Assembly (NCBI GenBank): GCA_964458595.1
Contig: CAYWJQ010000006.1
Span: 69,776-133,775 of the forward strand
Length of the DNA: 64,000 bases
Reading direction: 5' to 3'
Source of the DNA: an uncultured Thermoplasmata archaeon
Lineage (GTDB): Archaea > Thermoplasmatota > Thermoplasmata > Halarchaeoplasmatales > Halarchaeoplasmataceae
Made by a program: the position numbers and the translations under genes. The number at the start of each line of letters is the position of its first letter. Position 1 is the stretch's first letter. This document shows, in pieces, positions 13,801-64,000 of the stretch. A model generated the notes under the pieces. That model saw only the letters and a list, made by a program, of their open reading frames with translations. It searched no databases and was not told the origin of the DNA.

Positions 13801-13813
13801 CAAAGGTGATAAC

Positions 13814-14398: not shown

Positions 14399-14404
14399 AA
14401 GCGA

Positions 14405-14662: not shown

Positions 14663-15630
14663 TCCCTAGGTTCCGGGGAATTTACCTCTCTTTTCATCCT
14701 GAACCGGCCCATTTTCTTAGAGCCCTTCAACTTTTCTTTTGATCTCCTGCTCATTTCCGGCGACAAAGAATGTAATCCCTTCCATATCTCTGTTCTTATT
14801 GCAGCACATTATATTCAAACTATCCTTCCAGAACTATATCTGGGCAACAGTGAGATCGGAATCATCTAGTATGAATTTTGATGTACCACAGCACTTCCTC
14901 TGTTCCTTTTGAAATTATCCATCTCAAATTTAAAATCTACTATCTCTTCCGACATCTCTCTCATCTCATCCGGATAATATTCCCCCTGATCCTGGCTATC
15001 AGGTATTATATCCTCAAAACTTTCATTTCCCTCTTTTTCAGCTACCAGCCTATCTTAAACGACTTCACTGCCTTCAATGTTACTCAAAGACGGCAATATT
15101 ACATGAGGAAATAAGTCGTCTTGGAATCTTTTTAATTTTCTTATATTTTTGAAAATAATAATAAGTTAAACCTTAAAGATAGAAAAAACATAAGTTATCC
15201 ATCTACCATTTTAAACATTCAAAATCAAATAAGATCTTTATAGAAAAAATCGAACTCTAAAATAAAAAAAATTTTTTAATTCCGTATGGAAGAATTTTTT
15301 CATTTTCCTTCAAAAACTACTCAATGAAAATTTAATCTAAAATAAAGATGTTTTTCCTCTAATCAACTGGTTTTAGTATATATGAGATCGTTATCGGTTG
15401 CTCGAAATGATGAGTTTTTCTTTCTTTAGTAATCAAGGATGATTATTATAGAGAATAAATCTACTGCGATGTTTTCATCCTTGGTAATCAACCATCTCAA
15501 AAAACATTGATAAATAAACCATATAATCGTATTCAATGATGATTTTCAATGATGATAATTCGAGTGTTTTATCAAGATTGATACCACTTTCGAAATTACT
15601 ATTTATATCGATAATGATATTTCATAACGA

Positions 15631-15655
15631 GAACAGGAATTGATTGCGCCTGTTC
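15631..15655 (+). promoter_or_regulatory. Inverted repeat upstream of the seventh archaellin
   Basis: gaacagg-(11 nt)-cctgttc, about 40 nt upstream of ATG 15696 and just downstream of an A/T-rich tttatat box at about 15602. Confidence 0.3.
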
Positions 15656-15695
15656 GTAATCGCCCTTTATCGGGTGTCTAAGAGGCGGATAGTTT

Positions 15696-16319
15696 ATGAG
15701 ACGACTAAAAAGAAATAGTGAAGTAGAAGACGAAAAAGGTATGATGGGTGTGGGAACCCTGATGATCTTCATAGCGATAGTACTAGTGTCTGCAGTATCT
15801 GCGGGAGTATTCATCCGAACAGTGACGATGTTAAAACAGCAGGCAGAACAGTCCGCGGAAGAAGCGATGGCCGAGGTATCCACTTATATCAAGGTGAGAT
15901 CGATGCTTGGGATAAGAAATAAGACCGGAACCGGTCTCAAGAAGATTTACGTGAACTTGGGAGTAGGTCCGGGTACACCTCCGCAGAACTTAGAAAATCT
16001 GCTGATACAAGTCGATAACGGAGACGCACAAAAAGCCCTAGAATACAGTCCTGATAAAGCAAGCGGAGAGAATTTTACAGCGGTAGCTCTAAAAGATCCT
16101 GAAGGCGAATTCGATAGAGAAGACAACCCGTTGATCTCTAGTGGTACAACTCTGCAGTTGACTTTCAATATAACACAGATCGATGGAAATACGACGGGCT
16201 CTTTCGATCTACCACCACAGACCGAGATGAACATACAGTTCACTCCAAAACACGGTGCGAGTACGATAGAGATATTGGTCACACCTTCGGTTTACCACAA
16301 GGACATAATGCATCTGTAA
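15696..16319 (+). CDS. flaB: Divergent archaellin paralog 7
   Basis: KGMMGVGTLMIFIAIVLVSAVSAGVFIRTVTMLKQQAEQ signal peptide/helix and C-terminal NIQFTPKHGASTIEILVTPSVYHKDIM; distinct promoter and central region. Confidence 0.75.
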   Translation: MRRLKRNSEVEDEKGMMGVGTLMIFIAIVLVSAVSAGVFIRTVTMLKQQAEQSAEEAMAEVSTYIKVRSMLGIRNKTGTGLKKIYVNLGVGPGTPPQNLENLLIQVDNGDAQKALEYSPDKASGENFTAVALKDPEGEFDREDNPLISSGTTLQLTFNITQIDGNTTGSFDLPPQTEMNIQFTPKHGASTIEILVTPSVYHKDIMHL

Positions 16320-26208: not shown

Positions 26209-29200
26209 ATGGGAAATAGTCGGGAGCTAAATCCTCAAGAACTGGAAAAAGAGATTCTTCAGTTTTGGAGGTCAGAAGATATCAACGATGAATTGATCGA
26301 TTCTAGGAGGGGTGGTAGAAATTATTATCTGGCTAGACCCCCTTTTCCTGTCAAAGATGAACTTAGCTGGGACGAATTATATGGCAATATAATCTACGAT
26401 GCGTGGGCCCGATTCATGAGTATGCGCGGTTTTAACGTCAGAAACGGTATAGGGACGGACCCGTTGAGTCTCAGGATAGAGAAATTGGCCTTGAAAGAAG
26501 AGGGTCTCAGATGCTTGAAAACTTCACTTGAGGGTCATGAAAGTTTTTCAGAGGACCTCTCTGACAGGGCTGAAGTCCTAAAGGAAGAGACCTTCGATCA
26601 TCTTCAGCATCTTGGGCTTTGGACGAACTCGGAATATGATTATGAAACTACCTCCGGTAAATTTATAGACTCGATATGTTGGACTATCAAAGAACTGATG
26701 GAAAAAGATTTACTCGCAAAAAAAGAGAAGCCCGTAAGATGGTGCCCAGAATGTAAAATTCCTGTGATGGGTTCCGAGAAGTCCACTAGAGAAGAACCGA
26801 GGAATGACCCCATAGTGAAGGTCCCTCTCGCGAGCGGGAAAGAGAGATATTTCCTAGTGGAGATAAAAGATTTGTGGAAACTACCCGCGAGCCTGTCTTT
26901 AGCCGTGAATCCGAAAATGAAATATTCGGTCATAAAATCTACTACAGGGGATGGAGAGGTCGAACAATACGTGGTTCTCCAGGAAAAAGCGGCCGAGATG
27001 ATGGAGAAAGCGGGAAGAAGATACACCGTTTTGAATACGGTAGATGGTAAAAAATTAAAAGGACTTTCCTTCAGATATCCTTTGGGAGAAAAGATACCCG
27101 AAAAAGTAGAAATTGATTGTGAACATAAAAGAAGGGTTTTAGGTACAGATGAGGTGAATGAGGAGGGAACCGGTATCGAATTTTTGGTTCCTCCGTATGA
27201 AGAGAGCCATCTTGAGATCGCCGAAGAAAATGATATGAATATCTACGATCCGCTTCGGGATAATGGTTACTTTGATGGGGGACCGAGGAAGAATAAATAT
27301 TCGGGTCTTTCGACTTTCCAAAGCGAAGAAGTGATCTTAGATGATCTTAGAGCTAAAGGATTATTGTTTTGGAATGAACGAGAACAAAGGAAAGTAGAAG
27401 TTTGCGACGCCTGCAAGAGTAAACTTATAAGACATAGAAAGAAGGAATGGTTCTTCGACAGTGAGAGATTCGAAGAAGACATAGGTGAGGGATTAAATCA
27501 GATCGAGACCCTGCCTTCCAATAAAAATTTGAAAGTGGACGATTGGTTAGTTACTAGGGATAATCACTGGGGCATGGCTTTCCCGATTTGGAGGTGTGAA
27601 TGCGGTAAATCTTTTATACCCTCAGAGCGGAAGGAATTAGCCGATAACTCGGACTATGATGTAGATGATCTATTCATCCCGGAAACGATGAAAAATATAG
27701 AAGTGGAATGTCCCGAATGCGGTAAAAGGATGGACCGTGATGACAGGGTGATCACCCCCTCACTTTTGAGAGCCGCATCCCCCTGGGCTCAGATAGGATA
27801 TCCCCATGATGAAAAAGGATATCAGTCGTGGTGGCCCGGAAAACTGATGATAGGTAGCGATCCAAGAGAGGACGGTTTATTTTCTGCAAATCTTAGTTTG
27901 TCTCTTTCTTTATTTGATGAGCCCAGCATCGAAAAGATTTTGCTCAAAGGAACGATCATAAGCGAGATAGATTATAAGAACGTGAAAGGACTGGTAGACA
28001 ATCAGGGCCACGATACATTGAGAATACATCTTTTATCGGACTCACATCTCTGGGAAGATCGAAAGATCGAAGGAGATAACCTTCAAGAACCTCATCCGAT
28101 GATAAGAGTCCTTTGGAACCTGCATCAGTTCTTTAAAGACAATTTGAGAACATTGGATTTAGAACTGGAAGATCTAGTATCGGAACCGGATTTGGAAAGA
28201 TTAGAGGTGGAGGATAGATGGTTGTGTTCCTGTTTGGAAACGACCAAAGAGGTTTCCCATGAATATTACGAACATGGAAGGATAGACGAGGCTCAGAAAG
28301 TATTTCAAGATTTTATCCTAGAGGATTTTGCTCAATGGTATATAAGTTTAGCTAGAGAGAGACTCGGTGATGGTAAGGAGAACGAAGAAAATATATTGAG
28401 CGCGATGTACCGTTGTTTGAAGGACATATCGAAATTGATATTCCCTATAGCTCCTTTCATCGGTGAAAAGATATATCTCGATCTTAATGAAGATGAGAAG
28501 AGCGCTTTCCTCTCAGGATGGCCTGATTTTGAAGAGAAGTACCGTTCCCTCGAGTTAGAAGATGAGATGAAAGAGATCAGAAGAATAGTAAATGAAATAA
28601 AAGAGATCAAGCGGAGAGAAGAACTGCCTGAGAAATGGCCGCTAGATGAGATAATATACAAACCGAAGGATGAAGAAAGTAAGGACCTGATCGAAAGATA
28701 CAGCCACGTTATCAAAGACAAGGCCAAAGTGAAAATAGTCAAAATTTTAGAGGTGGGAGAGGAATGGGAAGATTCCATCCTTAAAGTGAGACCCAACGAG
28801 GAGACCATAGGAAAGTCTTATCAGCAGTGGAAAAGCAAGATTGCTACCATGCTGCAACAAAGGTCTCCCGAAGAGATAAGAAAAGGCGTCGAGGAAGGCG
28901 AGTTCACCATGGGATTAGAGGGTCAGATCATAGAAATAGAACCGGAGATGGTGGAATTCGAAAAGGACATGCCCGAAGGATACAAAGAATTGTCTTTAGA
29001 CGGACATGATATCTTCGTTAATCTGGAGGTCACTAACCAGATATGGGAAGAAGAGATGGCCGATGAGATCATACTTAGATTGAAAAGTATGCGAGAAGAC
29101 ATGAATCTTGCTGAGGAAGATGAGATAGACGCTTATATTTCAGGGGAGGATTACATTATAGAAGCGGTGGAAAATCATATGGCGGGGATAAAAGAAAGGA

Positions 29201-30207
29201 GCGGGGCGAGAGAGATTAAAGTCGATGACGAGGACACTGCCGAATGCGAGTACATCCTAGAGTGGGAAATAAACGGTCAAGATGTGGAGATAGGAATCAA
29301 CCCTCTCTATAAAACGCAGGTTTTGGATTATTTCACGAGATTATCCGGAGTAGACGAACAGATCGCTGAGACCCTTTATGAAGCTAGATATACCTCTATC
29401 GAGCATCTCAAAGAAGCATCGGCTTCAGAGCTATCGGGTGTAGAGGGCATCAAAAGGAGCTTAGCTAGGAGTATAATCAACTCTCTAAAAGAGATCGAAA
29501 GTAAAGAAGAACTTCAGGAAGAGAAGAAACCCTCTGAAAAGCTAAAGGCCGAGGAAGAAGAAGAAAAAGAAACTGGTGAAAAAGAGATGGAGGAAGAACC
29601 AGAGGAAGAGATAGAAGAAGAGACTGAGGAAAAAATGGAAAAAGAAGCCGAAGAAGAGCCGGAAGAAGGACTTGAAGAAACTGAAGAAAAACTCGAGGAA
29701 GAAGAAGAGGAAACTATGGATAGAGAGAGGATCCAAGAGGAATTACCAGATAAAATTTCACTTGGCTCCACGTACTTGATCGAAGAAGAAGGAACGGAGG
29801 AATCTTTCAGCTTATTGAAAGAAGTATTAGATATGGGTCAGCAGGGTCTTTGTGTATCTAGAGATTATCCGGAAAAGATAAAGGAGGAATACGATTTAGA
29901 GGACGTTGAGATGATCTGGCTTTCGAACGTCGACAGGGAAGACGTGATCAGGCCGAAGAGTTTGGAAAAGCTCAGTTTAGCTTTAGAGAACTTTTTGGCA
30001 AGGAAAGGTGGAGTCATATTGTTAAACGGACTTGAGTATCTCATCACTAATAATGACTTCCGAACTGTGCTCCACCTCATCCAATCCATTAAAGATCAGG
30101 TTGCCATAAATGAATCTATACTCCTAATACCGATTAATCCCACGGTGGTCGAAGATAGCCAACTTGATCTATTGAGCGGAGAAATTGATGAATTGATCGA
30201 ACCCTGA
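26209..30207 (+). CDS. Isoleucyl-tRNA synthetase-like paralog with degenerate catalytic motifs, fused to helix-hairpin-helix region, acidic linker and DUF835-like domain
   Basis: Class I aaRS scaffold recognisable (PPFP...MRGFNV...GTDPLSLRIE; DWLVTRDNHWGMAFPIWRCECG; Zn-knuckle CPEC/CDAC motifs) but HIGH is replaced by WDEL and the KMSKS position reads YKNVKG; C-terminal 450 aa are HhH-like, E-rich linker and a domain homologous to the centre of the 5773-9045 protein. Confidence 0.8.
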   Translation: MGNSRELNPQELEKEILQFWRSEDINDELIDSRRGGRNYYLARPPFPVKDELSWDELYGNIIYDAWARFMSMRGFNVRNGIGTDPLSLRIEKLALKEEGLRCLKTSLEGHESFSEDLSDRAEVLKEETFDHLQHLGLWTNSEYDYETTSGKFIDSICWTIKELMEKDLLAKKEKPVRWCPECKIPVMGSEKSTREEPRNDPIVKVPLASGKERYFLVEIKDLWKLPASLSLAVNPKMKYSVIKSTTGDGEVEQYVVLQEKAAEMMEKAGRRYTVLNTVDGKKLKGLSFRYPLGEKIPEKVEIDCEHKRRVLGTDEVNEEGTGIEFLVPPYEESHLEIAEENDMNIYDPLRDNGYFDGGPRKNKYSGLSTFQSEEVILDDLRAKGLLFWNEREQRKVEVCDACKSKLIRHRKKEWFFDSERFEEDIGEGLNQIETLPSNKNLKVDDWLVTRDNHWGMAFPIWRCECGKSFIPSERKELADNSDYDVDDLFIPETMKNIEVECPECGKRMDRDDRVITPSLLRAASPWAQIGYPHDEKGYQSWWPGKLMIGSDPREDGLFSANLSLSLSLFDEPSIEKILLKGTIISEIDYKNVKGLVDNQGHDTLRIHLLSDSHLWEDRKIEGDNLQEPHPMIRVLWNLHQFFKDNLRTLDLELEDLVSEPDLERLEVEDRWLCSCLETTKEVSHEYYEHGRIDEAQKVFQDFILEDFAQWYISLARERLGDGKENEENILSAMYRCLKDISKLIFPIAPFIGEKIYLDLNEDEKSAFLSGWPDFEEKYRSLELEDEMKEIRRIVNEIKEIKRREELPEKWPLDEIIYKPKDEESKDLIERYSHVIKDKAKVKIVKILEVGEEWEDSILKVRPNEETIGKSYQQWKSKIATMLQQRSPEEIRKGVEEGEFTMGLEGQIIEIEPEMVEFEKDMPEGYKELSLDGHDIFVNLEVTNQIWEEEMADEIILRLKSMREDMNLAEEDEIDAYISGEDYIIEAVENHMAGIKERSGAREIKVDDEDTAECEYILEWEINGQDVEIGINPLYKTQVLDYFTRLSGVDEQIAETLYEARYTSIEHLKEASASELSGVEGIKRSLARSIINSLKEIESKEELQEEKKPSEKLKAEEEEEKETGEKEMEEEPEEEIEEETEEKMEKEAEEEPEEGLEETEEKLEEEEEETMDRERIQEELPDKISLGSTYLIEEEGTEESFSLLKEVLDMGQQGLCVSRDYPEKIKEEYDLEDVEMIWLSNVDREDVIRPKSLEKLSLALENFLARKGGVILLNGLEYLITNNDFRTVLHLIQSIKDQVAINESILLIPINPTVVEDSQLDLLSGEIDELIEP

Positions 30208-46334: not shown

Positions 46335-49300
46335 TCATACTTTTTTCAGTCTCACTTCGAATCTGGCACCGCCCAGTTCCGAGTCTTTCACATCTATCTT
46401 CCCATCATATATATTTATCAGCTTATCGACAAGGAACAGTCCCAATCCGGTCCCCCTATCCGCGTCAGTGGTGAATCCTCTTTGGAATATCTTGTCCTTC
46501 TTCTCGTCGGATATACCTTTACCGTCGTCTTCTATTATACATATGCCTTCATCATCGGTCTCTTCGATTTTTATATGGATCTTCGTACCTTCAGAGTACT
46601 TGATCGAGTTCTCTATTATGTTTGAAAAGACCTCCTGTAAGAGCGGACCAGCTTTTACTCTGCAGTCTTTTTCACAGTCCATGGTGATCTCCATTTCTAT
46701 ATCCATCATCTGGTCCTGCAGAGCACCGACCGCATCGTGGAAAGTACTCTCCATACTGATCTCACCGATCTCTTCGTTGTTCGCTTCTCTAAGAGTCCTG
46801 ATCTTTTCTATCAGTTCTACGCTGCTCCTCACGCCTTTTTCAGCTTTCAACAAGTATTCCTCCGCATCCCCCGAAAAATCGATCTCCTCTTTCATCAGAT
46901 GGAGATAACCCTCTATCACCTGGATCTTGTTCCTTATGTCGTGTCTCAACAGAGAATGAAGGAATTCTTCTCTCTCCTTGGCCTCCTTCCTTTCGGTTAT
47001 ATCTTGAACGTAACCTACCGTTCCACTAACCTCTCCTTTACCGTCTCTGTAAGGCGTTGCACCCATTATAACACTCACTGACTCGCCGTTTTTCTTTTTC
47101 AACTCGGTCTCGTAGACTTCGCTGAGTCCTTCCTTACGGCTTTTGGTTTTCCCACTTATCTTTTCATAAACATCTTCCGAAGTGATCTCCGATACGTTTT
47201 TACCCATAATTTCTTCTTTATCGTAACCCAACATCTCAGCAAATCTATCGTTAGCAAATATTAACTCGTCTTCAAGATCGGTTATCGTGACTCCCACTAC
47301 TGAATTTTCTATTATGGACCTGTACCTCTCCTCGCTATCTATTAGCTGCTGCTTCCTCTCTTCTCTCTTCACTATGCTGGTCAAGATTTCGACCACCGCT
47401 TCGAGAAGCTTAACCTCTTCTTCTAAAAAGATGCCGACATCTTCTTTGGGCCTTTCTTCTAAATAATTGACTTGGATAGATCCTCTCACGCTGTCGTCGA
47501 TCGATAATTTCTTTTTCAAGTTCCTCCCGCTTTCTTCATAATCTTCACTTTTGTATTCATCGTCGTCGAACACTATTTTAGCGCTTGTAACTTCCGGGTA
47601 CTGGAAAGCCTCGGGTATCATCTGCGCAGTTTTTCCAAATATATTCTCCAGTTCGATCTCGGGTTTCTGGGATAAACGCAGGATACTGTAAAGAAGATTG
47701 AGTTCTTTCTCACGTTCTTTTCTATCTTTTATATTTCTAGCCACGCTTAGGACCGCGGGTTCTCCTTGGTAAGAGATGTAGCTAGAATTGATCTCTTCCG
47801 GTATTTTTCTTCCTTCTTTGGTAACATGGACGGTCTCGAATATCAATTCTTTTTTGTCTTCGATATCTTTAATTTTTTCTTTGATGTCTTTTGAATGTTC
47901 AGCCGTATCGATATCTCCAGGCCCCTTCTCTAATAATTCTTCTCGAGTGTAACCCAATCGATCGACCGCTTCTTGGTTTACCTTCAAAAAGTTTCCGTCC
48001 ATATCATGGATAAAGACCGCATCGTTCATACCCTCGATCAATTTCTCGTAATCTTCTTTTGCTTGAATGAGTTTTTCTTCCATCTCTTTTCTTTTAGTGA
48101 TATCCTCCGTAAAAGCGATGGTTTGATCCTCCAATTTAACGACGTTTACGATCCAGTGTCCGTGACTACCGTCTTTCTTAAGAAAAGGAATTTCTATTCT
48201 AGTTTCTCCCGTTTCTAGCAATTCCTCGAAACTTTCCTCAGCCTTCTCATGATGTTCAGGAGGAGTCAGATCAAATATATTCATGCCGATAAGTTCCTCC
48301 TCAGAATATCCGGTCATCTCACATGCGCTGTCGTTGACTTCGATGTATTCACCCTCTAAATCCGTCACGAGTACTCCGATAGGAGCATTTCTCACGTAAC
48401 TTTGAAACTTTTCCTTTGTTTTTTCTAGTTCTACCTCTCTTTCTTTTCTTTCCGTTATATCAGTTGCGGTACCCATCAACCGTTCTTTTCCTTCGCTATC
48501 TTCTATCTTTTCGGCTCTTATCTCTACCCAGATCCACTGACCGTTTTCATGCTTTATCCTCAGATCGACATTATTCAGCGTTCCGCTCTCGATAGCTTCG
48601 TTCAAATAAGTTTTAGCCTCGGATATATCTTCGGGATGTACTCGTTCTAAAAGCGAATCGAAAGTATGTTCTGAAGTCGAACCCGGTTCAAGCCCTACCA
48701 ATTTTTCCATAGACTCGTACCAAACATTCAATTCATCTTCGATGTTATATTCCCAGATACCTGTGTCTGTCGTATCTAAGGCCATCTGAAGTCTTTTCTT
48801 CGTTTTCTTGAGTTCATTTTCCGCCTTTTTCCTTTTGGTAACATCTCTGCCGATCACTATCTCTCCTTCAAAACCTTCTTCTTCGAATACGGCGACATTT
48901 ATTTCGGCATGAACTATATCTCCTTCTTTAGTGGTCAATTCCACGTCATATGGAGGAATCTTTTCTCCACTTTTTCTTTTTTTGAATCGTTCCATAGTCT
49001 TTTCCTGGTACTTTTCGGACAAGAAGGGGGCCTCTAGAAGCGATTTTCTCAGGATCTCGTCTTTTTCATAACCCAGTTTTTTTACCGCAGCATCATTCAC
49101 ATCCTGGAAAATTCCTTCTTTATCCAATAAAAACGTAGGATCGGGAGACGCGTTGTAGATTTTTTTGAATCTTCTTTCGGATTTTTCGAAACGCTTCTCG
49201 GCTATTTTTCTATCCGATAGATCTCTGATATTGCATTGTACCACCTTTTTGCCGCCAACTTGATAGGTGTTGCTCACGAACTCGACCGGCGTTTCCTCGC

Positions 49301-49970
49301 CTTCTTTAGTTTTCAGAGGCAGATCTTCATATCTAATGTAACCCTCATTGGTCAGCTCATCGAATCTTTTCTTGTTCTCGGCCACATTTTTGAAAGAACC
49401 GATCTGCCAGAGTTTTTTCCCGATCAGTTCTTCTTTGGAGTAACCGAGAAGCTCCTGGATGTACGGATTCGCATCCTCGATCTCCCCGCTTTCCGCATCG
49501 ATTATCAGCATCCCGTCATGAGCGCTCTCGAATAATCTCCTGTATCTCTCTTCACTTTCTTTTACTTCTTTCTCTGATTTTTTAGACTCCCATTCTTGGA
49601 CTATCGAATCCGCGAGCACTGCGAATTGACTTTTCGGCGACCCTCCTTTCTGTAGGTATCTTTCTGCTCCGAGATTGAGAGCTTTCATCGCGACTTCCTC
49701 TCTACCTTTACCCGTGAATAAGAGGAAAGGGATCTCATTTTTTCTCTCTTCTCTAACTATCTCTAAGAACTCTAGACCGTCGATCTCTGGCATCTGGTAA
49801 TCTGAGACTATGACGTCGAAATCCTCGTCGTCCAATAACTCTAAGGCTTTCTCCGCCGACGAAACAGGGATTATATCCAATCTTTCATCTTCTCTTTCTA
49901 AAAATACCTTAGATTGGTCTAACAGACCTCTTTCGTCGTCCACGAAAAGAACTTTGATATCCTCATGCAT
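46335..49970 (-). CDS. Hybrid sensor histidine kinase (N-terminal receiver, multiple PAS/PAC modules, HisKA and HATPase)
   Basis: Receiver VLFVDDE...DYQMPEIDG; repeated PAS-like units; H-box HSLLRHDIRNK; ATPase G-boxes DDGKGI and GTGLGL; 1211 aa. Confidence 0.85.
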   Translation of the reverse strand: MHEDIKVLFVDDERGLLDQSKVFLEREDERLDIIPVSSAEKALELLDDEDFDVIVSDYQMPEIDGLEFLEIVREERKNEIPFLLFTGKGREEVAMKALNLGAERYLQKGGSPKSQFAVLADSIVQEWESKKSEKEVKESEERYRRLFESAHDGMLIIDAESGEIEDANPYIQELLGYSKEELIGKKLWQIGSFKNVAENKKRFDELTNEGYIRYEDLPLKTKEGEETPVEFVSNTYQVGGKKVVQCNIRDLSDRKIAEKRFEKSERRFKKIYNASPDPTFLLDKEGIFQDVNDAAVKKLGYEKDEILRKSLLEAPFLSEKYQEKTMERFKKRKSGEKIPPYDVELTTKEGDIVHAEINVAVFEEEGFEGEIVIGRDVTKRKKAENELKKTKKRLQMALDTTDTGIWEYNIEDELNVWYESMEKLVGLEPGSTSEHTFDSLLERVHPEDISEAKTYLNEAIESGTLNNVDLRIKHENGQWIWVEIRAEKIEDSEGKERLMGTATDITERKEREVELEKTKEKFQSYVRNAPIGVLVTDLEGEYIEVNDSACEMTGYSEEELIGMNIFDLTPPEHHEKAEESFEELLETGETRIEIPFLKKDGSHGHWIVNVVKLEDQTIAFTEDITKRKEMEEKLIQAKEDYEKLIEGMNDAVFIHDMDGNFLKVNQEAVDRLGYTREELLEKGPGDIDTAEHSKDIKEKIKDIEDKKELIFETVHVTKEGRKIPEEINSSYISYQGEPAVLSVARNIKDRKEREKELNLLYSILRLSQKPEIELENIFGKTAQMIPEAFQYPEVTSAKIVFDDDEYKSEDYEESGRNLKKKLSIDDSVRGSIQVNYLEERPKEDVGIFLEEEVKLLEAVVEILTSIVKREERKQQLIDSEERYRSIIENSVVGVTITDLEDELIFANDRFAEMLGYDKEEIMGKNVSEITSEDVYEKISGKTKSRKEGLSEVYETELKKKNGESVSVIMGATPYRDGKGEVSGTVGYVQDITERKEAKEREEFLHSLLRHDIRNKIQVIEGYLHLMKEEIDFSGDAEEYLLKAEKGVRSSVELIEKIRTLREANNEEIGEISMESTFHDAVGALQDQMMDIEMEITMDCEKDCRVKAGPLLQEVFSNIIENSIKYSEGTKIHIKIEETDDEGICIIEDDGKGISDEKKDKIFQRGFTTDADRGTGLGLFLVDKLINIYDGKIDVKDSELGGARFEVRLKKV

Positions 49971-56249: not shown

Positions 56250-59200
56250 ATGAAAAGTAAACTGCTACAACTTACGGTTTGCGTGGTGATCGGGATCCTA
56301 GCTTTAACTGCCTTCTCTCCAGTAGCTAGAGGAGGAGTGTCTAAAGAATTAGAAGATTCGGTAGAAGATAGGGACGGCAATTTGCATAGTGCTTATATTG
56401 AGAATAAAAATATATATTATAAATTCGAAAGCGCAGATGGCAGAGATGAATTTAAGATTTTAATAAAGCAATGCAAATCTAAAGTTTGTAAGGCAAGACT
56501 GTCTATCGACGATAGTTTGATATACATCTCATGGTTGAGTTGTCATAGAGGGGAGTTAGAAATAAATTACTGCGGGGCTGAACTCGACTCTATCCGCGAT
56601 TGGACCTCAACTAGAACGGTAGATGCTGAGTTCAACAACATCTTGGATTATGATCTTCGGGTGAAAAAAGGTAGAATGAAAGTGATCCATGATGGAGAAA
56701 AATTGATGGAATGGCTGGGAGATATCGATGGTGACTTCATACCTGATATAGTAGACAAAGCCCCTGCAGGATATGATTTTGATGAGAGCTCGGTAACGGC
56801 GGACTTTGTCAAAAGTTATGAGGATATGGGGGTATCTCTGGGTGTTTATATACCTGAATCGGCTTGGAGAAGACCTGTTTTTTATAAGCGGACGATCAAA
56901 GTCGTGAGAAATGGGGATCGATTTTCTATAAGAGGGAACTTGCCTCGTGGAACTGAGCTATCCTTAAAATACAGAGGTGAAGATTTTTCCGATGAAGCCA
57001 GATTCTATAGAAAAGATTTTAGATCATATAAACCTGTCGAGAGCGGGATTGACGGACCAAACGATTATATATGGCTCGAGACCGACCGGACGGGGAGATA
57101 TACCATAAAAGATGCATCTAAAAGAGATTTTGACTCTGACGGGTTATCTGACCTCGTAGAGCTTTCTTCACCATCTGATAGAACTTTGACTGAAAAAGAT
57201 TTTTCATCAACCAAATTCGAAACTAATTCTATTTCCAAGCTCGTATTCGACAGAAATACACATGGAAACCTCTTCTGCAGCAGAGCATATATAGAATTGA
57301 AAAATATGGATGGTGAGAGTATTGACGGACTCGAGGTAGACGTCGGGAATGATGGTAAAACGGACTGGGAAGCCGTTGGGACCGTGAAAAACGAAGTGTC
57401 ATTCGGGAGGTTGAAGCTCGGCATCAACCTTTATTGGTTCAACCATTACGTCAATGAAAAGCCGAACGAAGTTACGATCCCGATAAGATTCGAGTCGATG
57501 GAAAACAGAGATGTAAAGATCACCGATGCCGAGATAGAATTTGAAGGTGTAGATACCAGCCCAGTTAAAGCTGATACAAATGGAGACGGTCTTTTGGATG
57601 GCTGGAAAGACGTCGACGGCGATATGGAATTTGAAAGAAAAGGTGAAGATGGTGTTTTAGCTACCTCTGACGACGAGACCCCTGGGGCCTTAGTCCGAGG
57701 TTTGGATCCAACCGAACTCGAGTATATGGGCAGGAAAGGAAGAGTGAGCTGGAACAGATACAAAAAAGGTGTCAATCAGGCGAATGGTAATCTATTCCTG
57801 AGCCATAACGACCTAAGTATAGATGCTCTTGGAATTAACATGGGCATAGGGAGACATTACAACAGTTTCGATCACGATAGAAAAGGCCCGCTCGGATATG
57901 GTTGGACGATGAATTATTTCGCAAACATCGTACCTTCAGAAGGAGATTTCGTCACATACTTTAACGGTGAGGGAACTGAATACAGGTTTGAATCTTTGGG
58001 AGGAGGTGATTATGAATCTCCCCACGGCTGCGGTTTCGATCTGGTCCGTGAAGAAGATGCATACAAACTGCGCTCCCCCTCTGGAAAGGTAAAAATATTC
58101 GATGAAAAGGGCAGATTGGCGCGTATCGAAGACAGGAACGAAAACTCACTCCACTTCACTTACGGTGAGAATGGAAATCTAAAAGAGGTGGAAGATGACT
58201 CCGGTTTGAGAATTGAACTTTATTATGAAGACGGAAAGTTGGTAAAAGTGAAGGGCCCGATAGGAAGGACCTGTCAATACGAATACAGCAAAGGCAGATT
58301 GACCAAATTCATCAATGCCGGCGGCAACGAGTACAGGTATATATACGGTCGAGATGATCTGCTGAAGACCATAATAAATCCCGTCGGATTATTCAAGTAC
58401 TATGATTATTCTTATTCTGGTCTACCCAAAGTCGAGAGGATAGTGAAAGGGAAGTATGAGAACGGGATGTACATGAATTATCATGTCGACTTTGAAGCCG
58501 ATTATGCCTATCCCTCTCATACCGCTTGGAAAGACGGAGAAGGTAATGAGATAACGAACAGTTTCGGTAAAGGCGGGGCCATGATAAAACACGAGAACCC
58601 CGACGGAACCGTTTCCTATCTAGAATATGACCTAGATCACGATCGTGTGAGGGTCGTTGATAAGAAAGGTTATGTTTGGCACAACGAATTCGGTCCGATG
58701 GGTAAAATCGTGAAGTCGAAGGATTCCACCGGAAACGTGACGAAAAAAGATTGGAAGAGAGTCGCCAACTCCGACGAATATATATGCGTAAAAGAATCTT
58801 CGACGGACAAGAGAGGCTACACGAGAGAAAGAAACTACGGCGAAGATTTCGATCTCAAGAGCACTGTGAAGAAAGACGGTGCGAGATACAGATATGTAAG
58901 GAATGACAAAGGTCAGCTGACTAAGTTGATAAAGCCTAACGGCGCCGTGACAAGATACGAGTACGACGAACACGGCAACAGGATAAAGAAGATCAACGCT
59001 TTAGGTCATGAGACTAGATATGTTTACAACGAGATAGGTTGGAAGAAGAAAGTGATCAAACCTAACGGTGCTGTTACGAAGTTCGAATATAACGAGCTTG
59101 GTGAAAGGACCAAGATAATAGACGATAAAGGCAACGTTATAAAGAAAGAATACGACGCGGTAGGGAATCTAGTGAAAAAGGTGAATAAAAGAGGGGGCGT

Positions 59201-61658
59201 GACTCTATATAAGTACGATGTTTTCGGAAATATGATATCAAAGACGGATCCTCTCGGAAATACGGTGAGGTACAGATACGATAACAACGGCAACAAAGTG
59301 CTGAAGATAGGTCCTCGGGGTTATCCGACCTATTATGAATATGACTGTATGGACAGGCTGGTCAAGAAGACCGACGCTTATGGGAATTCGGTAGAATACA
59401 GATACGACGAATTCCATAACAGGATCGAGACGATTGATAAGAACGGCAATTCATGGAAGAAGAAATACGATAAGATGGGCAGAGTGACAGCAAAACTGTG
59501 TCCTTACGGTAAAGCTATCCGATATGAATATAATTCCGAAGGTCAGGTCGTGAAGAAGATAGACAGGATGGGCTACGTTACTGAATACGAGTACGACAAG
59601 GTCGGTAGAGTAGTGAGGATGAAGAGGAAGCTTGGTCCGGAAGGTACGAACGTGACTTTGAGATACGACGAAGTCGGTAATCTGGTGAGCGTCACTCAGG
59701 CCGACGGAAACGACACTTCCACATGGCGGTACAAGTATGATCTTCTGGGAAGAAAAGTGAAGGAGATAAGTCCATTAGGTCACGTCGAGACCTACGATTA
59801 CGACAAGATGGGGGATATAGTCGAGTATACCAATGCGGAAGGCGAATCGACTCAGTATGATCATGACAGTTTGGGACGCCTTACTTCGGTGGAATTCCCC
59901 GATGGAAAAAGTGTCGAAATAACTCATGACTTGGATAAGAATATGAAGATACAGGAGTACACTTATCCCGATGGTTCTGCGGAAAGTAAAGCACCTCACG
60001 TGAAGAAAGTGATAGAGAAATACGATCTGTTAGGGAAGACTACTAAGAGAACTACAGTGTGGGGTTCAGGTGAAGAGAGATCTATCAGCTACGAGTATGA
60101 CAGCGCGGGCAACATGATAAAGATGAACGACCAGTTCGGGAGGACAACGGAATATTATTACGATGCTTTGAACCGACTCGATGCGGTCGTTGACTACGAC
60201 GGCGACGTCACAACTTACGAGTACGACGCTAAAGGACATTTAGTGAAGACCACGCTGCCTACAGGCACTCGAGTCTACAGGGACTACAACAAAGCCGATA
60301 AGCTGACCGAGCTAAAGAACGTGAAGTCCAACGGCGAGGTCATCTCCAGCTTCGAATACGGCTACAACTGGAACGGCAATATAGTGAGCGTGACCAACAA
60401 GCACGGCAACACTACACACTACAATTATGACAAGGAGAGCAGACTGACCTTGGTAGAATATCCGAGCGGATCGAAGATGAAATATAAATATGATAAAAAA
60501 GATAATTTGCTGGAAAAGAAACGTATCGTGGATGGTAAGATCGTGAATACCGTGAATAACGAGTACGATAAAGAGAACAGGCTGATAAGCTCGAACGACA
60601 AGACCTACAGCTATGACAAGGACGGCAACCAGATCCGAGCGGGCGATATTAACTTCGACTACATGACATCCTTCGTCAACGGCAAGAATGTGAAGAGGTT
60701 GAAGAGCGTGTCCGAAAATGAGGAACACGTGGCTTCCTACTCATACACGCTGGAAGGTCACCGAACCGGCAAGTCCTTGGATTCAGGAGAATCAGAGATC
60801 AGCTACCACTACAACGGCAGAAACGTCCAGTACGAACAGTGGAGCAGCGGCAGAACGGTCAGATACACGCATCCGATCGAAGGCGGAAGCAGCTGTTCCA
60901 GCTGCGGATGCGGTGGAAGCAGCGGCTTCTTCACCGACCATCCGATAAGCATGGAATTGAATGGTACGAAGTACTACTATCTCTACAACGGTCAGGGCAG
61001 CGTCACCGAGCTGATAAATGCGGATGAAGAAGTGGTGAACAAATATAGATACACGCCGTTCGGCAGTCCTAGATTGAAGGTAGAGAGCGTGTACAACCCG
61101 TACGAGTACACGGGTAGACGGTTGGATGAAGAGACCGGACAGTATTACTATCGAGCGAGGATGTACTCGACTGAGCAGTGCAGGTTCACGACGCAGGACC
61201 CCGCTGGGATGCAGGAAGGTCCGAACATGTATGCTTACGTGAGCAACAATCCGGTGAATCATCGTGATCCGAGCGGGTTAATAGCCCCTGATGCAGTTAT
61301 CGACGGCGGTGGTGGACTAGCGAATTGTCCAGAAGCGAATTATGATACGATTGAAGAGTGTGTAGATTATCATTGGTATGGTATGGGGGAAGCAGACGCC
61401 CGGGAATTCTGCCACAGTATCTGTTTGAATGAAAAAGGTACTGGTGGATGTACGTTCACCTCATATTATTGGGATTGTGTAGAGAGCAATTCATGGGACA
61501 TAGTACATGGAACGAGTATTGTAATGAGTTGTGCATCGGGATGCCTCATGACAGGTCCAGCTTGGCCCGAATGTGTGGGAGCATGTTTAATTGGTGCAGG
61601 CGTCGCTGCATCATCCCCATACGTAGGATGTTTGGTTGCAGCGGCTTATGTATGTTAA
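56250..61658 (+). CDS. Rhs/YD-repeat polymorphic toxin (signal peptide, YD repeats, Rhs core with DPxGL boundary, Cys-rich C-terminal tip)
   Basis: Signal peptide MKSKLLQLTVCVVIGILALTAFSPVARG; dozens of YD repeats (YEYDAVGNLVKK, YRYDNNGNKV ...); Rhs core KYYYLYNGQGSVTELINADEEVVNKYRYTPFGSP...PVNHRDPSGL followed by a unique 125-aa Cys/Gly-rich tip; 1802 aa. Confidence 0.85.
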   Translation: MKSKLLQLTVCVVIGILALTAFSPVARGGVSKELEDSVEDRDGNLHSAYIENKNIYYKFESADGRDEFKILIKQCKSKVCKARLSIDDSLIYISWLSCHRGELEINYCGAELDSIRDWTSTRTVDAEFNNILDYDLRVKKGRMKVIHDGEKLMEWLGDIDGDFIPDIVDKAPAGYDFDESSVTADFVKSYEDMGVSLGVYIPESAWRRPVFYKRTIKVVRNGDRFSIRGNLPRGTELSLKYRGEDFSDEARFYRKDFRSYKPVESGIDGPNDYIWLETDRTGRYTIKDASKRDFDSDGLSDLVELSSPSDRTLTEKDFSSTKFETNSISKLVFDRNTHGNLFCSRAYIELKNMDGESIDGLEVDVGNDGKTDWEAVGTVKNEVSFGRLKLGINLYWFNHYVNEKPNEVTIPIRFESMENRDVKITDAEIEFEGVDTSPVKADTNGDGLLDGWKDVDGDMEFERKGEDGVLATSDDETPGALVRGLDPTELEYMGRKGRVSWNRYKKGVNQANGNLFLSHNDLSIDALGINMGIGRHYNSFDHDRKGPLGYGWTMNYFANIVPSEGDFVTYFNGEGTEYRFESLGGGDYESPHGCGFDLVREEDAYKLRSPSGKVKIFDEKGRLARIEDRNENSLHFTYGENGNLKEVEDDSGLRIELYYEDGKLVKVKGPIGRTCQYEYSKGRLTKFINAGGNEYRYIYGRDDLLKTIINPVGLFKYYDYSYSGLPKVERIVKGKYENGMYMNYHVDFEADYAYPSHTAWKDGEGNEITNSFGKGGAMIKHENPDGTVSYLEYDLDHDRVRVVDKKGYVWHNEFGPMGKIVKSKDSTGNVTKKDWKRVANSDEYICVKESSTDKRGYTRERNYGEDFDLKSTVKKDGARYRYVRNDKGQLTKLIKPNGAVTRYEYDEHGNRIKKINALGHETRYVYNEIGWKKKVIKPNGAVTKFEYNELGERTKIIDDKGNVIKKEYDAVGNLVKKVNKRGGVTLYKYDVFGNMISKTDPLGNTVRYRYDNNGNKVLKIGPRGYPTYYEYDCMDRLVKKTDAYGNSVEYRYDEFHNRIETIDKNGNSWKKKYDKMGRVTAKLCPYGKAIRYEYNSEGQVVKKIDRMGYVTEYEYDKVGRVVRMKRKLGPEGTNVTLRYDEVGNLVSVTQADGNDTSTWRYKYDLLGRKVKEISPLGHVETYDYDKMGDIVEYTNAEGESTQYDHDSLGRLTSVEFPDGKSVEITHDLDKNMKIQEYTYPDGSAESKAPHVKKVIEKYDLLGKTTKRTTVWGSGEERSISYEYDSAGNMIKMNDQFGRTTEYYYDALNRLDAVVDYDGDVTTYEYDAKGHLVKTTLPTGTRVYRDYNKADKLTELKNVKSNGEVISSFEYGYNWNGNIVSVTNKHGNTTHYNYDKESRLTLVEYPSGSKMKYKYDKKDNLLEKKRIVDGKIVNTVNNEYDKENRLISSNDKTYSYDKDGNQIRAGDINFDYMTSFVNGKNVKRLKSVSENEEHVASYSYTLEGHRTGKSLDSGESEISYHYNGRNVQYEQWSSGRTVRYTHPIEGGSSCSSCGCGGSSGFFTDHPISMELNGTKYYYLYNGQGSVTELINADEEVVNKYRYTPFGSPRLKVESVYNPYEYTGRRLDEETGQYYYRARMYSTEQCRFTTQDPAGMQEGPNMYAYVSNNPVNHRDPSGLIAPDAVIDGGGGLANCPEANYDTIEECVDYHWYGMGEADAREFCHSICLNEKGTGGCTFTSYYWDCVESNSWDIVHGTSIVMSCASGCLMTGPAWPECVGACLIGAGVAASSPYVGCLVAAAYVC
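60278..61277 (+). repeat. Rhs 3' core segment, copy A (inside the main rhs gene)
   Basis: About 1 kb repeated with high identity at about 61895-62917 and, 5'-truncated, from about 63440 to the window end. Confidence 0.85.
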
Positions 61659-61684
61659 ATGGTAAAAATCATAAGGTGAAATGA

Positions 61685-61870
61685 ATGGGATGGAAAACAA
61701 CATCTAAACTAGTAATGGCGCTAATAGTAATAGCTTTCGTGATAGGCTACTATGTATTAGCAGGTATTGGTTATATTGAGTTGCCTAAATATTGGCAATT
61801 TGGCACTCTTCCTGTACATATTTTCTTAATCGGTATGGCCACGATTTTGTTATACCAAGTATTTGAATGA
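61685..61870 (+). CDS. Small two-TM protein immediately after the rhs toxin tip (candidate immunity protein)
   Basis: 61 aa, two hydrophobic helices, 27 bp after the rhs stop. Confidence 0.4.
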   Translation: MGWKTTSKLVMALIVIAFVIGYYVLAGIGYIELPKYWQFGTLPVHIFLIGMATILLYQVFE

Positions 61871-61894
61871 TAAATAATAAACACCATCACGTTT

Positions 61895-62917
61895 AAGCTA
61901 TACTAACTACCTACGGGCACGAAGATATTCAGGGACTACAACAAAGCCGATAAGCTCACCGAGCTAAAGAACGTGAAGTCCAACGGCGATGTCATCTCCA
62001 GCTTCGAATACGGCTACAACTGGAACGGCAACATAGTGAGCGTTACGGACAAGAACGGCAACACTACGAACTACGACTACGATAAGGAGAACAGGCTGAC
62101 CTCAGTGGAATATCCGACTGGATTGACGATGAAATATAAATATGATAAGAAAGATAATTTGGCGGAAAAGAAACGTATGGTAGATGGTAAGGTAGTGAAT
62201 ACCGTAAATAACGAGTATGATGAAGAGAACCGTCTGATTAGATCGAACGACAAGACTTACAGCTATGACAAGGACGGCAACCAAATCAGAGCGGGCGATA
62301 TGAGTTTCGACTATATGACCTCACGCATCAACGGTAAAAATGTGAAGAGGCTGAAGAGCGTATCCGAGAGCGGCGAACACGTAGCATCTTATTCTTACAC
62401 ACTGGAAGGACAGCGAACAGGCAAATATCTCGATTCAGGAGAGTCCGAGATCAGCTATCACTACGACGGAAGGAACGTCCAGTACGAGCAGTGGAGCAGT
62501 GGAAGAACAGTAAGATACACGCATCCGATCGAAGGCGGAAGCAGCTGTTCCAGCTGCGGATGCGGTGGAAGCAGCGGAGTGTTCACCGACCATCCGATCA
62601 GCATCAAAGTGAATGGGACGAAGTACTACTACCTTTACAACGGACAGGGAAGCGTGACCGAGCTCATAAATGCTGATGAAGAAGTAGTGAACAAATATAG
62701 ATACACACCGTTCGGCAGTCCTAGATTGAAGGTAGAGAGCGTGTACAACCCGTACGAGTACACGGGTAGACGGCTGGATGAAGAGACAGGACAGTATTAC
62801 TACAGAGCGAGGATGTACTCGACAGAGCAGTGCAGGTTCACGACGCAGGACCCCGCGGGGATGCAGGAAGGTCCGAACATGTATGCTTATGTTGGGAATA
62901 ATCCGGTGAATCACCGT
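61895..62917 (+). repeat. Rhs 3' core segment, copy B (orphan cassette)
   Basis: Nucleotide identity to 60245-61277 visible by eye (e.g. agggactacaacaaagccgataagct); diverges right after the NHRDPSG codons. Confidence 0.85.
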
Positions 62918-63184
62918 GATCCGAGCGGAATGGTGAGTATGAGCGAGTGTTTGACTTTATGTAGCTTGGGGGGTTGTGCAGCTCTATGCGGAATGGCAGC
63001 TTATGCTGGTCTTGTCGGTGCTGTAGTTGGTGTCGGCTGTGGGGTAGCATGCTGGTCTTTGGGTTGTGGGACTCTATGCGGGATAATACTTGGCGATGGT
63101 GGAGGCACCTGGCCTGATCCTATTGAACCCCCACAATGTGATCCTCAAACCCATCAATGTTTGATGCACAATGCAATATCGTAG
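61973..63184 (+). CDS. Orphan Rhs C-terminal cassette with an alternative toxin tip
   Basis: GTG-initiated ORF whose first 315 aa match the main Rhs C-terminal core and end at PVNHRDPSGM, followed by a different 85-aa Cys/Gly-rich tip (CSLGGCAALCGMAAYAGLVGAVVGVGCGVACWSLGCGTLCG). Confidence 0.75.
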   Translation: MKSNGDVISSFEYGYNWNGNIVSVTDKNGNTTNYDYDKENRLTSVEYPTGLTMKYKYDKKDNLAEKKRMVDGKVVNTVNNEYDEENRLIRSNDKTYSYDKDGNQIRAGDMSFDYMTSRINGKNVKRLKSVSESGEHVASYSYTLEGQRTGKYLDSGESEISYHYDGRNVQYEQWSSGRTVRYTHPIEGGSSCSSCGCGGSSGVFTDHPISIKVNGTKYYYLYNGQGSVTELINADEEVVNKYRYTPFGSPRLKVESVYNPYEYTGRRLDEETGQYYYRARMYSTEQCRFTTQDPAGMQEGPNMYAYVGNNPVNHRDPSGMVSMSECLTLCSLGGCAALCGMAAYAGLVGAVVGVGCGVACWSLGCGTLCGIILGDGGGTWPDPIEPPQCDPQTHQCLMHNAIS

Positions 63185-63189
63185 GTGGA

Positions 63190-63435
63190 ATGATGAGAAA
63201 TGGAAATCGATATGGGGAAAATTGGTTATTAAAAAATCTTAAAGAACGTTTTTTTACTACTATTGGGGTTGCAGTAGGGGTAACAATCCCATTTTATATC
63301 ACTAATATATACAGTAATCCACTCCAATTATTGCTCCTATTTGTTTCATCATATCTTATAGCTAATATCAGCGGATTAATCTGGTTATATGCTACAGAAA
63401 AAAGAAAGGATAAAAATAATGAAACCGACTTATAA
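63190..63435 (+). CDS. Small two-TM protein after orphan cassette 1 (candidate immunity protein)
   Basis: Hydrophobic helices FFTTIGVAVGVTIPFYITNIY and LLLLFVSSYLIANISGLIWLY; start chosen at internal Met after GGTGG. Confidence 0.35.
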   Translation: MMRNGNRYGENWLLKNLKERFFTTIGVAVGVTIPFYITNIYSNPLQLLLLFVSSYLIANISGLIWLYATEKRKDKNNETDL

Positions 63436-64000
63436 TTTATTAGATGGTAAAGTCATGGATCCATTACGAAACGATTACACCGAAGAAAGCAGGCTAATGG
63501 GATCAAATACGACAAAGATGGCAACCAGACAAGCCGGAAAGATGAGCTTCGACTACATGACTTCCTTCGTCAACGGCAAGAATGTGAAGAGGTTGAAAAG
63601 CGTGTATGATAGCAACGAACACGTGGCTTCCTACTCATACACGCTGGAAGGTCACCGAACCGGCAAGTATCTGCATGATGGTGAAGAAGAGATAAGCTAC
63701 CACTACAACGGCAGAAACGTCCAGTACGAACAGTGGAGCAGCGGCAGAACGGTCAGATACACGCATCCGATCGAAGGCGGAAGCAGCTGTTCCAGCTGCG
63801 GATGCGGTGGAAGCAGCGGAGTGTTCACCGACCATCCGATCAGCATCAAAGTGAATGGGACGAAGTACTACTACCTTTACAACGGACAGGGAAGCGTGAC
63901 CGAGCTCATAAATGCTGATGAAGAAGTGGTGAACAAATATAGATACACTCCTTTCGGCAGTCCTAGGTTGAAGATAGAGACGGTCTACAACCCGTACCAG
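63419..64000 (+). CDS. Second orphan Rhs C-terminal cassette, 5'-truncated relative to the main gene; runs off the window end
   Basis: In-frame translation from ATG 63419 gives ...FDYMTSFVNGKNVKRLKSV...GGSSCSSCGCGGSSG...KYYYLYNGQGSVTELINADEEVVNKYRYTPFGSPRLK, matching the main Rhs core; no stop before position 64000. Confidence 0.6.
   Translation, partial: MKPTYNLLDGKVMDPLRNDYTEESRLMGSNTTKMATRQAGKMSFDYMTSFVNGKNVKRLKSVYDSNEHVASYSYTLEGHRTGKYLHDGEEEISYHYNGRNVQYEQWSSGRTVRYTHPIEGGSSCSSCGCGGSSGVFTDHPISIKVNGTKYYYLYNGQGSVTELINADEEVVNKYRYTPFGSPRLKIETVYNPYQ

Follow-up and report, generated by a model that had tools for sequence, protein, structure and literature searches.

Small cysteine-rich tips in an archaeal Rhs locus as candidate membrane-acting toxins with membrane-protein partners

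What could an Rhs toxin do to its target when its tip bears no resemblance to an enzyme and its producer is an archaeon? This question was raised by a locus in a 64,000-nt stretch of DNA from an uncultured Thermoplasmata archaeon, here called the window, in which one full-length Rhs gene is accompanied by at least two silent orphan cassettes. Two C-terminal tips, tip1 of the full-length gene and tip2 of the orphan cassette that follows it, were analysed together with the adjacent small open reading frames (ORFs) imm1 and imm2, which are candidate immunity genes. All coordinates are positions within the window, L006 to L015 stand for related loci, and codes of the form P00xx and P01xx for related proteins. 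A preliminary description had taken both tips for glycine-zipper, cysteine-rich membrane peptides rather than nucleases, and the two tip strings quoted in it were found exactly, in the place where it had put them.

The favoured reading, with a probability of about 0.55, is that the tips are non-enzymatic Rhs toxins which act on the membrane and are paired with membrane immunity proteins, in the manner of Tse5 and Tsi5. Antagonism between archaea is barely characterised; to our knowledge no archaeal Rhs toxin has been tested, and none was found in literature searches. Classical polymorphic toxins were considered rare in archaea (PMC3482391). If the tips are membrane-inserting hairpins, they would show how a cage-type toxin works without a type VI secretion system (T6SS), they would provide a minimal pore or membrane toxin of ~50 amino acids (aa) with a defined immunity partner, and their cysteine ladder would mark a tip family missed by current domain libraries. 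If they are ordinary instead, the locus would be one more Rhs array with unannotated tips.

The cysteine ladder of tip2 and the modules of tip1

Cysteine made up 9.6% of tip1 (12/125) and 12% of tip2 (10/83) against 0.6% in the background, which consisted of the 30 other long ORFs of the window. This 16-20 fold enrichment is beyond chance in both tips (binomial p ~2e-11 and ~1e-10). In the core of tip2 the pattern CX3CX4CX3C-x16-CX3CX4CX3C was found, a ladder of eight Cys with Cys-to-Cys distances of 4,5,4,17,4,5,4, which are palindromic (2.5e-4 by chance).

An exhaustive HMMER search was run with tip2 against 1.84 billion representative proteins, and one true homologue was obtained, the 98-aa orphan Rhs end P0124. 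Between the two, 40/78 residues were identical (~51%), and 10/10 Cys were kept with identical spacing. The search gave 21 matches in total, including the self-match P0121; the 19 others, all very long, were treated as spurious. The five of these that were read (P0122, P0123, P0125, P0130 and P0134) were bacterial repeat proteins, four of them with an Ig-like 'GGVTWTATLTP' repeat that matched DGGGTWPDP in the tip2 tail via summed weak repeats.

The C-module of a Thermoplasmata tip in L006 (1043-2131) could also be aligned to tip2 with 8 Cys, and the invariant columns of the tip2 family were C6, C10, G14, C15, C19, C36, C40, G44, C45, L48 and C49. Apart from L48, conservation among the tip relatives was confined to Cys, Gly and Asp, and no His, Lys, Arg or Glu was conserved as a catalytic candidate. 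The AlphaFold2 (AF2) model of tip2, predicted from the single sequence and of low confidence, consisted of helices throughout, and these were interrupted precisely at the invariant G14 and G44. Tip2 may be a helix-turn-helix with kinks, the two arms being opposed via the Cys pairs C6-C49, C10-C45, C15-C40 and C19-C36, with the CX6C loop of the tail in addition. The palindromic ladder of eight Cys with its invariant Gly kinks, rather than glycine, is the most conserved feature of tip2, and it suggests that a disulfide-stapled helical hairpin is formed. This dominant conserved feature had been left uninterpreted in the preliminary description.

By the Nei-Gojobori method, dN was 0.39 and dS 1.3 between tip2 and P0124 (dN/dS ~0.3, a rough value), and dN 0.55 and dS 2.7 between imm2 and its homologue (dN/dS ~0.2, equally rough). 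Judged from these sequences, both tip2 and imm2 are under purifying selection.

Kyte-Doolittle (KD) values exceeded 1.6 over residues 14-54 of tip2 and over residues 101-121 only of tip1. Of the 3206 charge-free runs in the background only one was as long as 40 residues, and the run in tip2 was 49 residues long. Sums on a simplified Hessa scale were +1.7 kcal/mol for tip2 and +4.4 kcal/mol for tip1, against -2 to -5 for 5/7 of the ORFs downstream of tips; imm2 and its homologue in L011 came to about +0.7. Thus the tips appear marginally hydrophobic, as would be expected of segments that cross the Sec channel and stay soluble inside the Rhs cage, and the downstream ORFs seem to resemble ordinary integral membrane proteins. 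It had been claimed that the tips are short and end in hydrophobic segments; the latter held, weakly, for tip1, and it failed for tip2, where the polar tail comes after the hydrophobic part.

A glycine zipper was defined as (G/A/S)xxxGxxxG or GxxxGxxx(G/S/T) inside a hydrophobic helix (quoted in PMC12744356). Five such motifs were counted in tip2, and four of them lay in the 49-aa core, where 1.1 were expected and where four were reached by 3% of shuffles; the zippers run through A25-G29-G33-G37 and G46-G50-G54.

Tip1 would consist of two modules, an acidic Cys-rich N-module and a twin-CX3C hairpin with a C-terminal helix of weak hydrophobicity. In tip2, C-X3-C motifs are present as mirror images on the two predicted arms, and tip1 has a twin motif of its own (Table 1). 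Over its first 97 residues tip1 is acidic and looks soluble, and neither of its two Lys/Arg residues lies within the hydrophobic helix. The N-module is homologous to P0119 (E 7e-7), to the L006 tip (E 2e-6) and to others, with a common N-terminal pattern of the linker aPxDaIIDGGGG followed by CP..[YW][DE]....C ... CX3C. Only D, G and three C form conserved columns in this module, so no catalytic residues are evident, and the His residues of tip1 were not kept in L006. In a relative from L011 (2115-2816), a tip1-type N-module was joined to a 59-residue charge-free Gly/Ala-rich stretch with 4 zipper motifs; therefore the N-module travels with membrane-type C-modules.

The linker aPxDaIIDGGGG stands straight after DPxGL in otherwise different tips, namely in the window (61281-61316), L006, L009, L011, P0009 and P0119, and it is missing from tip2, P0124, L007 and L010. 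Such a distribution would fit tip junctions of two classes, or another functional element past the cleavage site.

Searches for known families were negative. At E <= 10, neither Pfam nor NCBIfam gave a match for tip1, tip2, four related Thermoplasmata tips or two bacterial tips. Word-indexed homologue searches returned only tip1 itself for tip1 alone and nothing for tip2 alone, and nothing came from scans of metagenomes (with the core-end alignment and a degenerate DNA pattern for MQEGPNMYAYV) or of viral contigs. Among PDB chain sequences nothing was found with tip1, nor with four relatives of the tips; for tip2 the best E was ~0.3, to the Gly-rich N-terminal transmembrane domain (TMD) of an Rhs1 effector, a compositional match. 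Homology to Tse5 was sought with phmmer and hmmsearch in all PDB chains, without a match to the tips at E <= 10, although the deposited Tse5 chain may not include its C-terminal toxin part (CT). Foldseek comparison of the AF2 models of both tips, which were made from single sequences without an alignment (pLDDT 54 and 46), gave no significant match to the PDB; a hit at E ~9 (tip2 to the soybean hydrophobic Cys-rich protein 1HYP) was discounted. As far as sequences tell, the tip families are new: neither Pfam nor NCBIfam contains them, and the 1.84 billion representative proteins hardly do. The claim that the tips are not nucleases was supported by the lack of any match to an enzyme, by tips that are too small and hydrophobic to resemble known enzymes, and by the lack of conserved catalytic candidates; no enzymatic toxin family was matched in sequence, and the structural side of this comparison is weak at the pLDDT values given.

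Small Cys-rich cargo was also seen elsewhere. P0063 (a bacterial or unknown orphan Rhs end from JGI) carries an unrelated short hydrophobic tip with palindromic Cys spacing of 4,8,23,8,4, and many of the 120 short orphan Rhs ends that were retrieved have 7-14 Cys within 50-115 residues. Such cargo may be a common unannotated type of Rhs tip.

Candidate immunity genes, proposed mechanism and known systems

A Shine-Dalgarno-like AGGTGA lies 5 nt upstream of imm1, and identical copies of imm1 adjoin tip1 in two other contigs of metagenome-assembled genomes (MAGs); no distant or divergent homologue of imm1 was found. The start of imm2 overlaps or abuts the stop codon of the orphan ORF. The adjacent ORFs had been described as small two-helix membrane proteins, which fits imm1 with its two clear helices, and imm2 in part, since of its two helices one is clear (KD 1.93) and the other weaker (KD 1.47). 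A 77-aa homologue of imm2 with two transmembrane (TM) helices was located directly after P0124 in L011-L013, which are three metagenome contigs of one archaeal genome with ribosomal protein genes nearby, and a truncated homologue was located after a frameshifted copy of tip2 in L008. That cassette (L008 ~1070-1820, from another Thermoplasmata MAG) is decayed, with the tip split by frameshifts and stops and the imm2-like ORF cut after its first helix, which may be either cassette erosion or assembly error.

A TM ORF of 59-229 aa followed all nine tips that have a segment with KD >= 1.6 (two in the window, two in L006, three in L011, and one each in L014 and L015), and neither of the two Cys-rich non-hydrophobic tips (L007 and L010). 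The association had a Fisher's exact p of ~0.02, the sample being small and its members not wholly independent of one another. For channel-forming effectors, immunity almost always comes from polytopic membrane proteins (PMC12744356).

The tips of L007 (108-869) and L010 (42-548), both from Thermoplasmata, have 16 and 9 Cys, end in ...CPY and show no recognisable downstream TM ORF; they are a separate tip family. In L015 (1-3300, a Smithellaceae MAG) a bacterial orphan Rhs array was observed, in which NlpC/P60 and phospholipase A2 tips stand beside a Cys-rich hydrophobic tip (P0080); the ORF that comes next overlaps this tip and encodes 101 aa with three TM helices.

The mechanism proposed under the favoured reading is as follows. 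The Rhs shell would enclose the tip, and an aspartyl-protease motif would cut it free at DPSG|L/M. Released at a neighbouring cell, the tip would partition into the exposed cytoplasmic membrane, with no outer membrane or murein barring the way in archaea. Since this membrane would be reachable from outside, a Sec-exported cage that releases a self-inserting hairpin would need no injection apparatus. Tip2 could enter as a charge-free kinked helix-turn-helix hairpin of ~50 residues, whose arms, carrying the mirror-image CX3C-x3-G-CX3C, would probably be joined by a four-rung disulfide ladder or at least form a tight Cys-Cys packing interface. Its turn-proximal glycine zippers might make it oligomerise to an ion-conducting pore, or disturb the bilayer in another way. 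Tip2 is acidic at either end, and the ends would remain outside, so that no charge would have to cross the membrane; the acidic flanks and the lack of any basic residue fit such an insertion. For tip1, membrane activity is less certain. The effect may be a pore, another disturbance of the bilayer, or binding to a membrane target, and the downstream small TM proteins would neutralise the cognate tip within the membrane.

The nearest known system, and an experimental precedent for the principle among Rhs proteins, is Tse5 (RhsP1)/Tsi5 of Pseudomonas aeruginosa. Tse5-CT is a pore-former that stands after the DPxGL of its Rhs cage; it contains hydrophobic or amphipathic helices but lacks any enzymatic signature, and it enters bilayers and causes cells to depolarise. 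Tsi5 is a small immunity protein with two predicted TM regions (PMC9637101, PMC10684867). The tips share with it the Rhs cage, the post-DPxGL fragment without enzymatic signature, the hydrophobic helices and the small TM partner; they differ in that Tse5 is bacterial, is delivered by the T6SS (PAAR/VgrG) and has a CT of 149 aa, whereas the protein studied here is archaeal and predicted to be Sec-exported. We know of no comparable Cys ladder in Tse5-CT.

The glycine-zipper toxins TelE, EsxX and TspA of the type VIIb secretion system depolarise the cytoplasmic membrane, on which they act from outside, and their immunity proteins are membrane-integral and also occur as orphans (PMC12744356). Tip2, like them, is a C-terminal domain of a polymorphic toxin with zipper motifs; unlike it, they have an LXG trafficking domain, are bacterial and contain extended zippers without interleaved conserved cysteines, and tip1 has no zipper.

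The WapA-type Rhs/YD toxins of Gram-positive bacteria have a signal peptide, YD/RHS repeats, a variable tip and a downstream immunity gene, and are delivered at the surface in a contact-dependent way without a T6SS. The locus has the same layout, with a small gene downstream of the tip and no T6SS. However, the tips of WapA act as tRNases, their immunity proteins are soluble, and they are produced by walled bacteria. Stapled hairpins are known as well: in twin-CX3C proteins, plant alpha-hairpinins, glycocins and sactipeptides, mirror-image Cys motifs on antiparallel helices give nested cross-links, and several of these are membrane-active antimicrobials. The tips resemble them in structural pattern only. 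Those peptides are free-standing or leader-dependent, whereas tip2 is an Rhs tip with a doubled motif, a Gly kink and a fully apolar surface.

The W-TIP pore-forming domain of polymorphic toxins has RxxR in its first helix and the W-TIP motif in its second (Zhang et al. 2012, PMC3482391). It was ruled out, since Arg and Lys are missing from tip2 and the two motifs from both tips.

Membrane-targeting Rhs tips paired with a TM immunity protein are already known; what differs here is a conserved palindromic ladder of Cys that alternates with the zipper, a setting of Sec type in an archaeon, and the very small size. It is tentatively proposed, as a possibility rather than an expectation, that the tips are an undescribed archaeal class: very small, charge-free helical hairpins locked by a four-rung ladder of palindromic cysteines, carried by a Sec-exported Rhs cage, inserting from outside with neither injection machine nor import receptor, and blocked by two-helix proteins. 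This layout of palindromic Cys also occurs in unrelated orphan Rhs tips of bacteria such as P0063, and it may be a general but overlooked way to build small Rhs cargo.

Evidence against the membrane reading and the alternatives

Several results weigh against membrane-acting tips. The whole basis is computational, the function being deduced from it, and no homology of the tips to any characterised membrane toxin was found; fold searches from models with a pLDDT of 54 and 46 are little informative. The glycine-zipper description held for tip2 with its five motifs in an uncharged stretch rich in small residues, but there the count of GxxxG by itself does not exceed what composition gives (it is attained by 21% of shuffles), and the description did not hold for tip1, which has 0 GxxxG, 0 zipper motifs and only a small-xxx-small spacing of Ala, Gly and Cys. 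Tip1 moreover has a single marginal hydrophobic segment (KD at most 1.64, Hessa sum +4.4), and the C-modules of its relatives in L006 and L011 contain charged residues. Tip2 is located on a silent orphan without a signal peptide, and its display would require recombination into the main gene. TM immunity proteins would suit any envelope-acting toxin equally, and the dN/dS values are rough because dS is saturated for tip2 and imm2. Finally, the strict conservation of Cys over Gly points to a disulfide-rich mini-protein, whose target is not necessarily the bilayer.

In an unlikely alternative, the tips are disulfide-rich secreted mini-proteins analogous to halocin C8 and other archaeocins. Killing would proceed via a specific envelope target (a membrane protein, the S-layer or a lipid-linked precursor) and not through pores, and the hydrophobic surface would serve for binding or partitioning only. 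The Cys enrichment, the retention of every tip2 Cys at ~51% identity in a palindromic spacing, the even Cys counts in 6/7 independent tip families of the clade and the non-hydrophobic Cys-rich tips of L007 and L010 all agree with it. Halocin C8, with 76 aa and 10 Cys, is likewise a short, hydrophobic, Gly/Ala-rich archaeal peptide. However, its Cys spacing is different, and its immunity protein HalI is not encoded by a TM ORF further downstream but makes up the N-terminal part of the halocin precursor itself. Fusions of the halocin C8 domain to RHS/YD proteins are reported in a preprint that cites Makarova 2019 (bioRxiv 10.64898/2026.07.27.741052); in Nitrolancea, for example, the domain forms an RHS tip. 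The profile of this family, TIGR04449, gave no match at E <= 10 among the whole proteins and eight tips, and hhalign of the tip2 family with mature HalC8 gave a probability of 0.6%. Kinship with halocin C8 was thus ruled out at the sequence level, and the term 'bacteriocin-like' of the preliminary description was not supported, since no bacteriocin, microcin or halocin homology was seen. In addition, 49 residues with no charged or strongly polar residue, together with zippers, exceed what a binding surface usually needs. A mini-protein would itself be compatible with insertion into the membrane.

It is improbable that at least tip1 is a small enzyme of new fold or another intracellular toxin, with a hydrophobic C-terminal end used for translocation, as proposed for the Tde1 glycine zipper and the prePAAR TMDs. 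Its long acidic, soluble-looking part with a conserved module would suit this, the best PDB match of tip2 is a translocation helix (at an E of 0.3 only), and glycine zippers for translocation have a precedent (PMC10240207). Against an enzyme stand the N-module, in which conservation is limited to D, G and three C (with the His of tip1 not kept in L006), the lack of any family or fold match, the 29 polar residues of tip2 beyond its hydrophobic core, which are too few for an enzyme, and downstream ORFs that are membrane proteins and not soluble inhibitors. A surface adhesin or structural protein, with hydrophobic C-termini as anchors or sorting signals and with small ORFs that are unrelated or spurious, is very improbable: the hydrophobic segment of tip1 does lie at the extreme C-terminus, and C-terminal anchors are frequent on archaeal surface proteins, but the anchor or PGF-CTERM reading was ruled out because there is no basic tail or PGF-CTERM-like motif and the autoprotease site at DPxGL, lying upstream, would sever the anchor, and besides this tip2 has no Lys or Arg at all and 29 polar residues after its hydrophobic part, orphan arrays in which every differing tip is accompanied by a small ORF are the hallmark of polymorphic toxins, imm2 is under purifying selection, and the Hessa sums of both tips speak against Sec stop-transfer anchoring.

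Organization of the locus and its surroundings

The features of the locus are listed in Table 1. In the main Rhs protein 17 RHS-repeat stretches were recognised (PF05593, E 6e-89), and PAAR, VgrG, LXG or TcdB-type domains were not found in it by the Pfam and NCBIfam scans. Its core ends with NNPVNHRDPSGL, where DPSGL lies at 61266-61280. The orphan ORF (61973-63184) was called from GTG at 61973; TIGR03696 also matched it at aa 244-320, and its core closes with DPSGM (62918-62932). The direct repeats between the main gene and the orphan cassettes, with 85-90% identity, stop at the DPSG codons. Tip1 and tip2 are unrelated (BLASTP, E > 1), and related loci bear yet other tips. The orphan core is a substrate for tip switching through recombination.

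Table 1. Coordinates of the Rhs gene, orphan cassettes, tips and candidate immunity genes
Feature	Position	Strand	Remarks
Full-length Rhs/YD-repeat polymorphic toxin gene (main gene)	56250..61658	+	1802 aa ORF
Sec-type signal peptide of main Rhs protein	56250-56336	+	N-terminus MKSKLLQLTVCVVIGILALTAFSPVARGG, read from sequence
DUF6531 plug of main Rhs protein	57768-57989 (aa 507-580)	+	Pfam
Rhs_assc_core of main Rhs protein	61050-61280 (aa 1601-1677)	+	TIGR03696, E 2e-23
Tip1	61281..61655	+	125 aa, 12 Cys, net acidic; starts directly after DPSGL
Tip1 linker IAPDAVIDGGGG	61281-61316	+	post-core junction
Tip1 Cys-rich N-module CPx..C..CX3C	61326-61424	+	acidic
Tip1 twin CX3C motif CASGC-x9-CVGAC	61530-61586	+	sequence reading
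Tip1 weakly hydrophobic C-terminal end, 28 aa	61572-61655	+	KD profile
Candidate immunity gene 1 (imm1)	61685..61870	+	61 aa, two strongly hydrophobic helices; 27 nt after tip1
Orphan Rhs C-terminal core	61907..62932	+	85-87% DNA identity to 60255-61280 of main gene
Tip2	62933..63181	+	83 aa, 10 Cys, no Lys/Arg; after DPSGM
Tip2 uncharged hydrophobic core, 49 aa	62948-63094 (residues 6-54)	+	no D, E, K, R, H, N, Q
Tip2 polar Pro-rich tail, 29 aa, with CDPQTHQC (CX6C loop)	63095-63181	+	sequence reading
Candidate immunity gene 2 (imm2)	63157 or 63193..63435	+	92 aa if started at ATG 63157; 80 aa with the start at 63193 (sister-MAG call)
Third orphan Rhs C-terminal cassette	~63380..64000	+	90% DNA identity to main gene over 63532-63831; tip past window end

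A Cys/Gly/Ser-rich loop, GGSSCSSCGCGGSSG, was observed in the Rhs core at 60882-60926, ~50 residues ahead of Rhs_assc_core, and again at 62534-62578 and in the third orphan (~63780-63825). Every member of the clade that was seen has it, some in a variant form such as GSSSCSSCGGCGNEKN; so Cys-rich a loop is unusual in a protein body with 0.9% Cys. Metal binding, disulfide exchange with Cys-rich cargo, or a function as a plug are possible roles.

Close relatives of the orphan Rhs core are in contigs titled uncultured Thermoplasmata archaeon, and one relative is labelled Candidatus Saliniplasma, order Halarchaeoplasmatales. The long ORFs of the window are acidic (D+E 18%, K+R 11%) with a Cys content of only 0.6%. 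Seven tandem paralogous archaellin ORFs, each of ~200 aa, were observed at 10119-16319, and the four that were scanned matched Arch_flagellin (E 1e-24 to 1e-33). Because of the Thermoplasmata-titled relatives, the seven archaellin genes and the acidic, Cys-poor proteome, the locus is assigned to Thermoplasmata within the archaea, and the host is probably a halophile.

At 26209-30207 (+) a 1332-aa protein is encoded in which a part resembling class I tRNA synthetases (Ile/Leu/Val/Met-type) is combined with HHH motifs and, at the C-terminus, with a DUF835 domain, and a 1090-aa protein joining FlaC, DUF835 and bactofilin domains at 5773-9045 (-); DUF835 was thus found twice in the window, both times in unusual fusions. 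A hybrid sensor kinase of 1211 aa, with a receiver, at least five PAS and HisKA/HATPase domains, is encoded at 46335-49970 (-).

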